Numbered from the stretch's first letter, positions 3,291 through 49,642 are shown. The stretch: DNA of 56,858 nt from Octopus sinensis (GCF_006345805.1 NW_021833657.1:1-56858), one strand, 5' to 3'. Notes: a model not told the origin generated them from the letters alone. Numbers and translations are program-made.

Positions 3291-3294
<4 letters not shown>

Positions 3295-4332
3295 TTAAAA
3301 TTAGGATAAAATCTTAATAAGAAATTATCAGGTAGTTAGCGTGAAAACCTCATAAGAGAAAAATATATATATATATATATATAAATTTATATATAGAGGG
3401 CATTATACATACATGCCAGAGGGCATTATACATACATGCCACACGCTAAGAGGGACAATTAGTCATTTCTACCAAAAATATTACTAATCCCACCGAATGC
3501 AATTTTTCAAAGTAAGACATTTAAAAAATATAGACCTGATCACAGTGATTTCATACTTACGTATTCATCAGCAGGCCTGAATGTATCATAAATAAACGAC
3601 CCTGCCCCGCTTAAGCCGATCAGCTAACTGATCAACATCAACGAAGCACATGGGTGAGTTTATATATATTACATCCTGTAAATGGCATACTTTTACGAAT
3701 TGCATTTCGGGAAAGGAAAAGTTTTTTCGGAATAAAAATTTAGCAATTAAGGACAACTACTTAATAAGGAAAACTTAACAAGAAATTGTCAGGTAGATAG
3801 CGTGAAAACCTCATAAGAGAATAAATTTCGAAAATAATTATTCTTATTGAACATATTAATTATATATAGAGGGCATTATACATACATGCCAGAGGGCATT
3901 ATACATACATGCCACACGCTAAGAGGGACAATTAGTCATTCTACCAAAAATATTACTAATCCCACCGAATGCAATTTTTCAAAGTAAGACATTTAAAAAA
4001 TATAGACCTGTATCACAGTGATTTCATACGATGAATACGTAAGTATGAAATCAGTGATACAGGTCTATATTTTTAAATGTCTTACTTTGAAAAATTGCAT
4101 TCGGTTGGGATTAGTAATATTTTTGGTAGAAGAAATGACTAATTGTCCCTCTTAGCGTGTGGCATGTATGTATAATGCCCTCTGGCATGTATGTATAATG
4201 CCCTCTATATATAAATTAATATGTTCAATAAGAAATAATTATTTTCGAAATTTATTCTCTTATGAGGTTTTCACGCTATCTACCTGACAATTTCTTGTTA
4301 AGTTTTCCTTATTAAGTAGTTGTCCTTAATTG

Positions 4333-4335
<3 letters not shown>
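3291..4335. mobile_element. Penelope-like element pseudo-LTR array (direct plus inverted copies) inserted in (TA)n
   Basis: 3385-3556 is repeated at 3860-4029; 3741-4029 is inverted at 4040-4335 (~290 bp arms); hammerhead motif inside; (TA)n on both flanks. Confidence 0.75.
3532..3578 (-). ncRNA. Minimal type I hammerhead ribozyme motif
   Basis: Minus strand AGGCCUG-CUGAUGA-AUAC(GUAA)GUAU-GAAA-UCACUGUGA-U(A)-CAGGUCU; this copy lacks the one A seen in the sister copies (4004-4029 and 4030-4066). Confidence 0.75.
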
Positions 4336-4364
<29 letters not shown>

Positions 4365-4549
4365 TCATCGTTTAACGTCCATTTTCCATGCTAGCATGGG
4401 TTGTTCAATTCCTAGACTGGGTGGTGTTTTGAGATGTTGGACAAAACACTTAATCTCACATTGCTCTGCTATCATTTCAACACCTGATGCGTAGTAGACC
4501 CTGCACCTGTTCAGGCAACATCAATTTGGTGGTGAGAGTGAGCTAAGGT

Positions 4550-4862
4550 AGGGCACGTGAAGAAACAACATTCTAGTGTGGTCATTGCCAGTGCCACTGG
4601 ACTGGCTCCCATGCAGGTAGCACGTAAAAAACAGCTTTTGAGTGTGGTCGTTGCCACAACTACCTGACTGGCCCTCATGCCGGTGGCATGTAAAAGCACC
4701 CACTACACTCTCGGAGTGGTTGGCGTTAGGAAGGGCACCCAGCTGTAGAACCTTTGCCAGATCAGATTGGAGCCTGGTGCAGCCTTCTGGCTTGCCAGTC
4801 CTCAGTTAAACCGTCCAACCCATGCCATCATGGAAAGCAGATGTTAAACGACAACGATGATA
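4550..4862 (+). mobile_element. SINE-B body and tail
   Basis: Repeated GGCACGTAAAAA motifs, GGTTGGCGTTAGGAAGGGCA.CCAGCTGTAG domain, tail CCAACCCATGCCA.CATGGAAAGC.GA.GTTAAA(YGA)n. Confidence 0.8.
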
Positions 4863-4894
4863 CAAATCATTTGTGCAGGTCATTCAGCAAAAAC

Positions 4895-5042
4895 CTTCTG
4901 AGTTCTTTTGCAAGGTTTAGAAAAACTGAAGGACCACTGCTATAAGTGTGTGAATCTGGGAGGGGAATATGTTAAAGGAAGTCATAGCTAACTCATCTGC
5001 CTGTGTTTTCTTTTACCCAAAACCAGGAACTTTCCAGTATAC
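4895..5042 (+). mobile_element. Mariner-derived MITE fragment
   Basis: Homologous to 45820-46041 including the right TIR. Confidence 0.7.
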
Positions 5043-5775
5043 ATACACACACACACTAATGTATTTATATGTATGTGTCTGCGTATTTAGATGTGATTGC
5101 AAGACTGTTTGATAAAGTACTCCTTGTGACCAATTAGATGCCCATATTAGTAAAACAGTTACTACAAACCCGTCACATTTTCAGGATATTATTACAACCC
5201 CATTACATCTTTTAGGGACATCTCCACAACATCTTTACATCAATCACCTTATCTTTCTTTCTTATTTTTCCAAACATTGTGTTATGCTGCCAATTGAGTC
5301 TATATTTCTCGCCATTTAACACCTGTTTGCTTTGCTGCGTTTTGTGTTTTTCACTTCGACAGAAAGAATCTTTTCTGTTTGTCATGTCAAGAACCATTTA
5401 GTGATTGCCTTAATTCACTAAGTGCCGAAACGTCTGAAATTCTGACATAAATTGTTGCCATTAAAAATAAAATTTTCTGATTATTAACCTCATCTTTGGA
5501 GATGAAAGATTTCCTATTTGTTTTGTTTTTTTTTTAGGTTTTTGTTTTGTTTTGCATCAGTATTTATATCTACTCTAAGTCATCATCATCATCATCGTCA
5601 TCATCATCATCATCAGGGGTTTTATTTTATTCTTGGATAATGTTAATATTGAACCAATTTGGATTCAAGCTACTAAGAACCTTCACCAAACTAGTGAAGA
5701 AGCTTTACATTATTCTTGATAAACTTGCTTCAATGTGGAATTCCTTATCATGGAAATCAATGAGAAAATAGTCCA

Positions 5776-6198
5776 CGCAGGAATGGCTGTGTGGTAAGTA
5801 GCTTGCTAACCAACAACATGGTTCCGGGTTCAGTCCCACTGCGTGGCATCTTGGGCAAGTGTCTTCTGCTATAGCCCCGGGCTGACCAATGCCTTGTGAG
5901 TGGATTTAGTAGACGGAAACTGAAAGAAGCCTGTCGTATATATGTATATATATATATATATAAGTGTGTGTGTGTATATGTTTGTGTGTCTGTGTTTGTC
6001 CCCCTAGCATTGCTTGACAACCGATGCTGGTGTGTTTACGTCCCCGTCACTTAGCGGTTCGGCAAAAGAGGCCGATAGAATAAGTACTGGGCTTACAAAG
6101 AATAAGTCCCGGGGTTGATTTGCTCGACTAAAGGCGGTACTCCAGCATGGCTGCAGTCAAATGACTGAAACAAGTAAAAGAGTAAAAGAGTAAAGAGT
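5776..6198 (+). mobile_element. SINE-A, full length
   Basis: Head, centre and (TAAAAGAG)n tail match the family. Confidence 0.93.

Positions 6199-47642: not shown

Positions 47643-47645
<3 letters not shown>

Positions 47646-47708
<63 letters not shown>
47646..47708. repeat. (GA)n microsatellite
   Basis: Direct inspection. Confidence 0.97.
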
Positions 47709-47710
<2 letters not shown>

Positions 47711-48504
47711 ATGTATGTGTGACCCAGGATTGGTTGGAACAAAAGAAGGAAGAGAGAGATAATCTTGGACCGAAAAGCTCTCTCTCGTGAATTCTTGTAA
47801 CTGAATGAACTCAGCGGCTCTGTAATGTCGGAGGATGCACATGTGGTTGTCAGCTGTCATTGTCGTCATCGTTATCGTTGTTATCGTCGTCATCCTCATT
47901 TTCATCGTCAGCGTCAACATCGGCATCGTCAGTCGTAATCATCGTCATTATCGTCATCGACGTCAACATCAGCATCGTGAACATCATCATCACCATCATC
48001 ATGACCACTACCATCATCATCACCATCCTTATCACTGCTACTACCATCATCATCATTGTCACCACTACCACTATCACTATCACCACCATCATTATCGTCA
48101 TCATTACCACCATCATCATCATCCTCATCATCATCACCACCACTACCACTACCACCACCATCATCATCATCATTTAATATCTGCTTTCCATGCTGGCATG
48201 GGTTGGATTGTTTGACAGGAGCTGCTATGGCTGGTTGGGCGGCACCAAACTTCACCTGGCTGTTTTAGCATGGTTTCTCCAGCCAATTAACTCCATCCCG
48301 TTCAGGTGGGAACGTATAAACCAAGGAAACTGGGAAACCGGCCCTTGTGAGCCAGGCATGGCTTGAAAAGTAACAAACATTTCTGTCAAGGGCTTATATG
48401 CCCCACTATTAGACTATTTTCTTTAGTCACTACATAGTGATTCCTTATAAGCTTTAAGCTTATAAAATAATACTGTATATATGTGTGTATATATATATAT
48501 ATAT

Positions 48505-48803
48505 GTGGAGGCGCAATGGCCCAGTGGTTAGGGCAGTGGACTCGCAGTTGTAAGATCGCGGTTTCAATTCCCAGACTGGGTGTTGTGAGTGTTTATTGAG
48601 CGAAAATACCTAAAGCTCCACGAGGCTCCAGGGGGGGGGAGTTCCCTGCTGTACTCTTTCTCCACAACTTTCTCTCACTCTTTCTTCTGTTGGCCTGCTC
48701 GCTTAGCCAGCGGGGTGGCATCATTCGAAGGCTAAAACAATGCGAAGCACATTGTGACCAGTGATGTGTAGCAACATCTGATAGCCTGGTCGGTCACGGT
48801 GAT
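48505..48803 (+). mobile_element. SINE-C, full length (tRNA(Arg)-like head)
   Basis: GGAGGCGCAATGGCCCAGTGGTTAG (A box), GGTTTCAATTCC (B box); sits within (TA)n; tail shared with 3135-3225 and 19425-19478. Confidence 0.85.
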
Positions 48804-48852
48804 ATATATATATATATATATGTATACAAATATATAAAATATATATATGTAC

Positions 48853-48887
<35 letters not shown>

Positions 48888-49171
48888 TGTATATATAGAT
48901 ATATATATACATATATATTATATATATGTATACACACACAGACCCACATTCATTCATGTGGTGCTTTACAGGGAATGAATGAGGAAGGAATGTTCAATAC
49001 AAAAAGATGTTTTTTTTCATTAAAACAGCAGCTGAGTGCTTGTCTTGAGACTAGACACATATGTCTGTATGTGTTGCACATATACTGGGTTATATATATA
49101 TGTATATTTATCACCGCTGTCCTAACCACAGGGCCATTGTGCCTCCACACACACACACATATATATATATA

Positions 49172-49642
49172 TAGGGAGGATTCAAGAAAAAACAAAAGAC
49201 AAAGACAGGTGGTGTAGAAAACAAACAGATGTATTAGTATAAAGCTCAGGAAGGGAAAAAGTCTTTTATGTTTTGAGCCTACGCTCTTCCACAGAAAGGA
49301 ACACAGAAAGAAACAAGGAGGGAATAAAAATGTGTGTAGTGGCTACCAGTCAATCATGGTGACTGCCGGACAGAAGGGTCACACTGGAGAGCGAAGAAGT
49401 AGGGGAGATAACAAAGTACTAGTGATCCCAAAAAACGGAGGTGCATGTGTGTGTGAAAGAGGGCTGGTGGTCTTGACGTGTGCGTATGTGTATGCATAGG
49501 TGTGAAAATGTGGGAGAGGGTGTAAGGGATGGGAAAGATAGGGAAGGTGGAGTAGGTATGTGTAGGGGTGGGGTGGGCTTATGGGGGAAGGTTGACAATA
49601 AAGGGGGGAAGGGAAAGATGGGTATGAGAGAAGAGAGAGAGT
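49172..49642 (-). mobile_element. pLTR-like element bounded by (TA)n with a decayed hammerhead (49263-49298), related to HH-4
   Basis: Minus strand CUUU-CUGuGGA-A-GAGC(GUAG)GCUC-aAAACaUA-AAAG, with downstream sequence similar to the HH-4 copies. Confidence 0.55.

Follow-up and report, generated by a model that had tools for sequence, protein, structure and literature searches.

We analysed a complete contig of Octopus sinensis (GCF_006345805.1, NW_021833657.1; 56.9 kb, hereafter the window), a microsatellite-rich part of a 2.72-Gb genome in which an earlier sequence-only reading had noted seven minimal hammerhead ribozyme motifs. Our results make it likely that six of these motifs are terminal-repeat pieces of Hydra- and Neptune-type Penelope-like elements (PLEs), that the seventh belongs to a retrozyme lacking an open reading frame (ORF), and that most of the short islands carrying the motifs are cDNAs of the 5′ leader of PLE transcripts. 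An origin from a promoter-started leader is likely because short copies of one family (F3) are spliced and nearly all long copies are not, because the two kinds are interleaved on a tree, and because the 5′ ends of one Neptune-type family (F4) are fixed. The seven motifs fall into five families (F1 to F5); a sixth, F6, had been overlooked at 6487-6766 and 22725-22927 and has a U3-A8 core. First-look searches of the genome returned candidate places, which are not copy numbers, for all six families (F1, 1389; F2, 2082; F3, 1617; F4, 2435; F5, 1540; F6, 2421).

Parent elements and TA targets of the islands

Judged by sequence, six of the seven motifs are pieces of the pseudo-long terminal repeats (pLTRs) of protein-coding PLEs, F2 and F3 belonging to the Hydra clade and F4 and F5 to Neptune. 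Long copies consist of a reverse transcriptase (RT), a GIY-YIG endonuclease (EN), a 3′ untranslated region (UTR), the hammerhead fold and a TA-rich end, often followed by an optional tail. The frame that marks EN+ PLEs, an RT with a C-terminal GIY-YIG domain, was found upstream of F2 (locus L313), F3 (L310), F4 (L351) and F5 (L253), and PLE architecture was also seen in paired pLTRs (L301), a partial tandem (L314), the tails of F1 and F3, and inverted arms. F2 to F5 are not non-autonomous tandem units without a coding parent, and their short copies are nearly always single. The PLE link, previously drawn from architecture alone, is thereby borne out by coding frames in longer copies of four of the five families. 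PLE proteins had no match in the window, which contains no PLE coding sequence in its 56.9 kb. The description of the islands as non-autonomous retroelements holds for the F1 retrozyme at 3.3-4.3 kb but not for the other six motifs, which are pieces of protein-coding Hydra and Neptune elements.

In long F2 copies the C-terminus of the EN lies ~0.7-0.9 kb upstream of the island. L313 has a 709-codon RT+EN frame ending ~730 nt before it, F2 sequence was present in 25 of the 30 loci of a search with the EN end, and L314 has a pLTR piece directly ahead of the F2 frame in partial tandem. For F3, the order in L310 is RT, EN, long UTR, intron, hammerhead and tail, the frame being in pieces. The F2 parent displays DKT, RWI (rather than RWK), a CxCx5C linker and CxxC/CxH motifs at the EN end; the F3 parent has the same linker and EN-end motifs, its RT being 45% identical. 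These features agree with the Hydra-clade marks in section 11 of PMC8557442, and the parents are assigned by motifs rather than by a tree of reference families. Given those marks, an assignment of F2 and F3 to Penelope/Poseidon was dropped in favour of Hydra. Pfam returned no match for the Hydra-type proteins. Long Asn-rich inserts separate RT and EN in the F2 parent (L313, L162), and Asn-rich inserts have been described in rotifer Penelope elements (PMC3846280). A tandem array of ~151-bp units, >11 kb long (all of L357 and L310:1-2830; C23, ~19,971,000-19,982,800), runs into the F3 parent frame; each unit matches the same ~49 Hydra RT codons, and the satellite apparently derives from PLE coding sequence.

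Among the Neptune-type families, F4 follows RT+EN and a CA-rich UTR in L351 (frame in pieces), with EN ends in L352 and L353, and F5 follows RT+EN in L253 and lies downstream of an RT match in 7/30 loci. Young relatives of F5 have frames of 757-1009 codons, three of them flanked by the motif on both sides; in L301, direct pLTRs 4.5 kb apart enclose a 1009-codon frame in which RVT_1 scored above and GIY-YIG below the cut-off. The F4 and F5 parents carry DKG, a Cx4CxxC linker and, at the C-terminus, a GIY-YIG with CCHH, in agreement with the Neptune marks; the distinction from Nematis, which has the same linker, was made by motifs and a by-eye RT match to one Neptune row rather than by a tree. 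No parent ORF was found for F6, whose U3-A8 core is kept at position 3 in 35/42 copies and at position 8 in 41/42. The genome contains 21,937 candidate PLE RT proteins. A very young Neptune-type PLE (L209, L210 and relatives) has 811-codon frames, and many of its copies are 99-100% identical; they end in TA, may carry a ~40-nt tail and have a U3-A8 hammerhead-like motif in the 3′ UTR. This family is the parent of no window island. Another PLE-type RT, presumably Naiad-like by its motifs, occupies a 384-codon frame beside an F4 copy (L046:206-1357, minus strand).

As the sequence-only reading had stated, all seven motifs lie in non-coding islands bordered by (TA)n. The enrichment of (TA)n at junctions that it proposed testing was also found. 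A (TA)4 occurred ≤6 nt from the 3′ end in 30/35 F2, 67/76 F4, 23/30 F5, 44/72 F3 and 6/30 F6 copies, against a background of 4.6%, and at least 14 of the F3 copies without it run on into the tail. At the 5′ side, (TA)4 lay ≤20 nt before the end in 28/48 short F4 copies, against 5.9%. These figures call for some caution, as TA tracts are found everywhere in the genome and the ends of two control short interspersed elements (SINEs) were followed by (TA)4 in 17/66 and 1/91 cases. Targeting of (TA)n is nevertheless supported. The junction between element ends also contains a short stretch of TA, and this could pair with the target once it is nicked. The fold-back structure attributed to the islands applies to two of the seven; the other five do not fold back. 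Elsewhere in the genome, an inverted arm was present at 8/30 and 6/30 loci of two Hydra families and at 0/30 and 0/30 loci of Neptune families. Both arms of the window F3 fold-back are spliced and share the same start point, and only one has the tail.

Spliced F3 copies and the origin of the short islands

Long F3 copies contain a GT-AG intron (703 nt in L274) that ends 13 nt before the core, with conserved donor and acceptor and a donor-to-hammerhead distance of 684-1152 nt. This intron is exactly absent from the window copy and from 27 of the 30 top F3 loci, a proportion that does not give the true ratio because the hammerhead query was itself spliced; four of the 30 loci are duplicates of one insertion. 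Exon 1 measured 15-48 nt (mode 24) in all 22 mapped spliced copies (22/22), and 23/26 copies retrieved with an intron query extended >48 nt upstream of the donor. When a query blind to splicing was used (200 nt upstream of the donor), 28 of 30 loci kept the intron, 1 was spliced and 1 was uninformative. Four unclassified copies and four intron-query loci without a donor stand outside these counts.

An exon 2 tree, the bootstrap of which is not fully settled, placed 27 spliced copies among 28 unspliced ones and required 11 label changes, 3 of them forced by well-supported branches. A single clade of spliced copies was rejected (approximately unbiased (AU) test, p 3e-7), and 26/27 spliced copies were 96-99% identical to an unspliced one. 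The interleaving, together with the rejection of a single clade, therefore indicates that spliced short copies arose repeatedly from an evolving coding lineage. These results bear on the idea, which is that of the sequence-only reading, that the short islands form independent, SINE-like non-autonomous families, in which a few short masters lying between TA tracts would be transcribed by read-through and recopied by the PLE enzyme, their ends and their lack of the intron being inherited. Such masters would fit the fixed 5′ ends of F4, the TA found on both sides (28/48) and the mutual identity of some short copies, and F1 is indeed non-autonomous. We nonetheless regard this as unlikely, since spliced F3 copies occur in several successive subfamilies alongside unspliced ones, 26/27 of them at 96-99% identity, and do not form one clade; the data would still agree with more than one master in each family, provided that every master began as a leader copy.

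A second line of evidence comes from the 5′ ends. In F4 copies met as bystanders, the end lay 75-92 nt upstream of stem II in 15/17 cases and never at 0-74 nt. Were the islands ordinary 5′-truncated PLE 3′ ends, produced when the RT stalls early, either on RNA structure or where the template briefly matches the TA target, with intron loss due to general splicing of the template, this gap would be unexplained, as would the tracking of splicing with length (22/22 spliced copies short; 28/29 long copies unspliced). As a general account we consider truncation quite improbable, but it suits the broad 5′ ends of F2, the ~470-bp F5 copy of the window, several 5′ ends at AT dinucleotides common to the target, and the one long copy that is spliced (L396). 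It probably accounts for part of the copies, F2 above all.

Several further observations weigh against the view that most short islands are leader cDNAs. In addition to the bias introduced by the spliced query, the splicing evidence is confined to one family, F3, and the single spliced copy returned by the splicing-blind query, L396, is long and EN-bearing. The 5′ ends of F2 are spread over 93-157 nt in 20/33 copies and >280 nt in 12, which fits ordinary truncation. Those of F5 and F6 cluster, but in query-selected copies biased against shorter ones, and F5 bystander ends were excluded for unreliable mapping, the alignments breaking at simple repeats. No extra G, the trace of a cap, was seen at F3 5′ ends; extra-G cases in F4 and F6 are suggestive, but few or confounded by inverted arms. 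Initiator-like words at 5′ ends were read by eye. In three young full-length Neptune copies the upstream pLTRs extend past the presumed start, to ~480-990 nt ahead of the hammerhead, and no full-length copy beginning at the leader was found.

If the short islands are leader cDNAs, transcription would begin at a promoter inside the pLTR, as in Penelope of Drosophila virilis, where transcripts start in the pLTR, an intron lies 46 nt downstream and most transcripts are spliced (PMC2377424). The RT/EN protein would then nick AT-rich DNA and start reverse transcription internally, just downstream of the hammerhead. The Anolis PLE protein offers a precedent, in that it cuts both strands of AT-rich DNA, extends both strands, and begins reverse transcription at two internal positions of the RNA, by which the tail is defined (PMC11167929). 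If the RNA started at the promoter and was spliced, and the enzyme began on its first pLTR, a ~200-nt cDNA reaching the RNA 5′ end would result and leave a short island of fixed length; beginning on the last pLTR, when the RNA is long, would generate long copies in which the distal intron is mostly unspliced. Priming on both cut strands would create head-to-head fold-backs.

PLEs keep introns through retrotransposition for a reason described as unexplained (PMC8557442, section 15), and an antisense template has been proposed to account for it (PMC3846280). Exactly spliced short F3 copies beside intron-keeping long ones mean that spliced sense RNA was copied; sense RNA therefore templated these insertions, and the antisense idea does not cover spliced leader insertions. 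Should PLEs make such leader copies routinely, intron retention would depend on the position of the intron along the RNA. The F3 short copies would offer a direct genomic read-out of transcription start and RT start sites, and in genomes of this kind PLE leader copies may make up many of the short repeats between TA tracts that are now annotated as unclassified SINEs.

Hammerhead folds, core variants and the F1 retrozyme

The type I topology with a palindromic or 2-nt stem III, as first described, was seen at all seven places. The fold is thus present throughout, but a complete canonical core was found in only 2/7 window copies. Under a strict descriptor (CUGANGA, stem II, GAAA, self-complementary stem III, UH, stem I) only 22550(-) passed in the window, and 0/60 shuffles reached 1. 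With a relaxed core and one internal stem II mismatch allowed, 22550 and 37269 passed, the shuffled window giving a mean of 0.125 with 1/40 reaching 2. The basal pair of stem II (10.1-11.1) is mismatched in both, and likewise in the F2 and F3 window subfamilies. Across 240 loci (789,909 bases) chosen as carriers of these families, the relaxed descriptor gave 244 matches against 0, 1 and 2 in three shuffles, so that motif frequency at the family level is well above that of shuffled controls; ~20 other motif types appeared in the flanks of these loci. Pairing of stems I and II beside a short self-complementary stem III is backed by compensatory changes as well as by the descriptor matches: F2 relatives have a swapped stem I pair and a restored basal pair in stem II, and one stem I pair is swapped between F4 and F5.

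That the motifs arose by chance in low-complexity sequence, or there represent decayed DNA hairpins resembling miniature inverted-repeat transposable elements, is hardly credible. The shuffled loci (244 matches versus 0-2) and the RT/EN frames refute this at the family level; compensatory changes in stems I and II (F2 relatives, F4 versus F5) and the identity between Neptune subfamilies, 88% in the motif versus 59% and 66% in the flanks, point the same way. What agrees with it is the passage of only 2/7 window copies, the small window-level excess over shuffles, the control SINE end that is also often followed by TA (17/66), and the Rfam results. Rfam listed no hammerhead among 150 of the 566 window matches, and none on the family copies of two other loci (L010, L301); its models miss these minimal forms.

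The core CUGANGA...GAAA...UH characterises F1, F2 and F3 family-wide but not F4 and F5. Four of the motifs had been placed in a single family, HH-4; they belong to two (F4, three copies; F5, one), and a canonical core with GAAA was found in none of them (6820, 26752, 33269 and 49294(-)). The F4 core is CCGACGA, with C4 in 66/75 copies, T in 9, and G5>A in 10, the last two both being products of CpG decay. The copy at 6820 reads CUGACGA but has AAAA in place of GAAA, and its CUGACGA most likely reflects CpG decay, since the family core is CCGACGA. In F5, U6 is found in 59/60 copies, and in 7/8 young long-frame copies, while position 7 is free. Predicted folds of both variant cores pair the core with the GAAA/stem III side, which would hinder cleavage. 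Changes at U4 or A6 slow known hammerheads, and the two recorded examples, a viroid hammerhead with U4C and a phage one with A6C, cleave slowly (PMC3088659). The islands can be called ribozyme-bearing as regards the fold, but catalysis appears doubtful in the U4C and A6U families and in the majority of window copies. Because these substitutions are family-wide, cleavage is probably dispensable for spread even though the fold is conserved, and it was dispensable for the Anolis protein in vitro (PMC11167929). With the fold otherwise kept at thousands of places, these families are test cases for slow or protein-aided cleavage versus a recognition structure only. Tentatively, we propose that, besides full elements, PLEs routinely insert copies of their spliced 5′ leader, that this accounts for most lone minimal hammerheads of animals, and that the fold may be mainly an RT recognition element, free to lose catalytic residues (U4C, A6U) even where the element is young and intact.

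F1 is the only true ORF-less retrozyme among the window motifs. From its sequence it fits the definition of a non-LTR retrozyme (PMC7229834), being a short tandem repeat without an ORF in which successive units carry a type I hammerhead. The unit is 475 nt long and 95-100% identical among top copies. Two arrays, with 32 and 13 hammerhead copies, have a head-to-head centre and a 136-nt tail, and the full motif is matched exactly in 20/32 and 8/13 of these copies; no PLE frame was found beside the arrays. Among the loci examined there was no ORF-bearing F1 relative, and one 78% relative is also without ORF. The window copy at 3532-3578 lacks the cleavage-site nucleotide H17, present in 29/30 top genomic copies, and the two neighbouring hammerheads in the same element are partial. 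As a circle, the unit is predicted to adopt a rod-like fold, 68% paired (z -7.1 versus 40 shuffles), and predicted co-folding pairs stem III between two copies. F1 may borrow an enzyme, probably of Hydra type, that copies it from RNA in circular or multimeric form. By eye, two insertions (L010, L016) appear to lie within a SINE and to interrupt its inner TA tract, which indicates that the tract predates the insertion. For the insertion in L009, contigs of four runs gave no joint across it, and its left flank is itself a repeat. F1 words occur in sequencing runs (X15-X20) of five organisms, none of the listed runs being on record as RNA, and two runs (X16, X18) cover F1; the retrozyme is therefore common to related species.

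Coordinates of all islands are collected in Table 1. More TA-bounded fold-back or remnant repeats lie at 37575-37775, 55120-55300, 36849-36953 and 27690-27810, most with homologues at other loci; no hammerhead passed the descriptor in these window copies, and the L210 relative of 27690-27810 shows, by eye, another CCGACGA-type motif. The window also contains a 5S rRNA match adjoining a SINE (13899-14017, plus strand, 97.8 bits), which could be a gene, a pseudogene or a 5S-derived SINE head, as well as a GC-rich minisatellite of 24 bp and a tandem repeat of 59 bp (41800-43450 and 53250-53560). An open stretch at 17712-18122 (plus strand), without a Pfam match, presumably resembles the C-terminal end of a CR1/L2-type long interspersed element (LINE) protein.

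Table 1 Islands and hammerhead motifs located in the window
Feature	Position	Strand	Remarks
F1 ORF-less tandem retrozyme insertion	3309..4344	.	two head-to-head arms joined at 4029/4030; (TA)n on both sides
F1 insertion arms	3309..4344		minus arm, 1.5 units and tail; plus arm, partial unit and 136-nt tail
F1 type I hammerhead	3532..3578	-	stem I 7 bp, stem II 4 bp, stem III palindromic
F6 fold-back	6487..6766	.	each arm with a decayed hammerhead-like motif, core U3-A8
F4 short copy, Neptune-type pLTR piece	6767..6952	+	old, 82% to long copy; core at 6820 CpG-decayed
F2 Hydra-clade pLTR piece	22326..22685	-	links to RT/EN frames in longer copies
F2 hammerhead	22470-22554	-	canonical core; stem II long, its base U-U; stem III a 6-nt palindrome
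F6 short copy	22725..22927	-	decayed U3-A8 hammerhead-like motif near its 5′ end
F4 short copy	26676..26880	+	core at 26752 CCGACGG (family CCGACGA, U4C)
F4 short copy	33194..33397	+	core at 33269 CCAACGA (CpG decay of family core)
F3 inverted arm	36960..37232	-	spliced; internal deletion through core; ends in optional ~75-nt tail
F3 exon 1, 24 nt	37233..37256	+	~700-nt GT-AG intron of long copies absent exactly at 37256/37257
F3 exon 2, Hydra-clade pLTR	37257..37459	+	ends in (TA)n
F3 hammerhead	37266-37326	+	canonical core; A-G at stem II base; palindromic 6-nt stem III
F5 Neptune-type 3′ end	49164..49641	-	~470 bp, exceeds usual short copy
F5 hammerhead-like motif	49263-49298	-	A6U core, G12 decayed; 49294(-) CUGUGGA with AAAA

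Relation to known elements

The islands had been called a hidden layer of the genome. They are dense, but their kind has been described (PMC4209133; supplement of PMC8557442): hammerheads of PLEs, their solo copies, U3-A8 cores, the TA bias of Hydra and Neptune, and retrozymes are already in print. The window thus holds new members of known groups, with a likely undescribed product class, the leader copies, and unusual cores. A literature search that covered, among supplements, only that of PMC8557442, and did not extend to several earlier PLE papers, yielded no account of A6U and none of leader copies that had been spliced.

The metazoan PLE hammerheads of Cervera and de la Pena 2014 (PMC4209133) resemble ours in their type I fold, vestigial or palindromic stem III, mostly solo copies and opposite-strand pairs, as well as in a bulged base before stem II (F4, F5, F6) and the U3-A8 variant (F6). 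There, solo motifs are ascribed to truncated PLEs, whereas many of ours have fixed ends and resemble leader copies, and family-wide U4C (F4) and A6U (F5) cores do not appear in the available text of that paper.

Similarly to the animal non-LTR retrozymes (PMC7229834; bioRxiv 10.64898/2026.07.22.740005), F1 is an AT-rich, ORF-less tandem unit with one type I hammerhead each, a strongly self-paired circle, and forms from dimers to large multimers. It differs from those quoted there in its 475 nt, slightly above 150-450 bp, its PLE-type head-to-head arms, its optional 136-nt tail and its TA targets, the circle being predicted.

Penelope of D. virilis (PMC2377424) and PAc of Anolis (PMC11167929) share with our families a hammerhead adjoining the acceptor and an optional tail, and would also share a promoter in the pLTR, an intron ~46 nt past the start, an internal RT start and extension on two strands. 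Both belong to Penelope/Poseidon and were studied in flies or in vitro; the available text of these papers presents retention of the intron as the rule and does not describe spliced leader copies in the genome.

The Neptune clade (PMC8557442) and the F4 and F5 parents have in common DKG, Cx4CxxC, a CCHH GIY-YIG, the order pLTR-ORF-pLTR and a TA bias; unlike in that clade, the F4 and F5 hammerhead cores depart from the consensus family-wide (U4C, A6U). F2 and F3 resemble the Hydra clade, including Hydra-1_Obim (Craig et al. 2021, PMC8557442), in the linker, the CxxC and CxH placed around the last E and N, the hammerhead and the (TA)n targets; stretches of the RT resemble that of Hydra-1_Obim by eye, and the supplement of that paper records an octopus Hydra family with a hammerhead and a (TA)n preference. 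F2 and F3 are distinct from Hydra-1_Obim, with Asn-rich inserts and 3′ UTRs of 0.7-2 kb, and F3 is set apart by its pLTR intron and its abundant spliced genomic copies.

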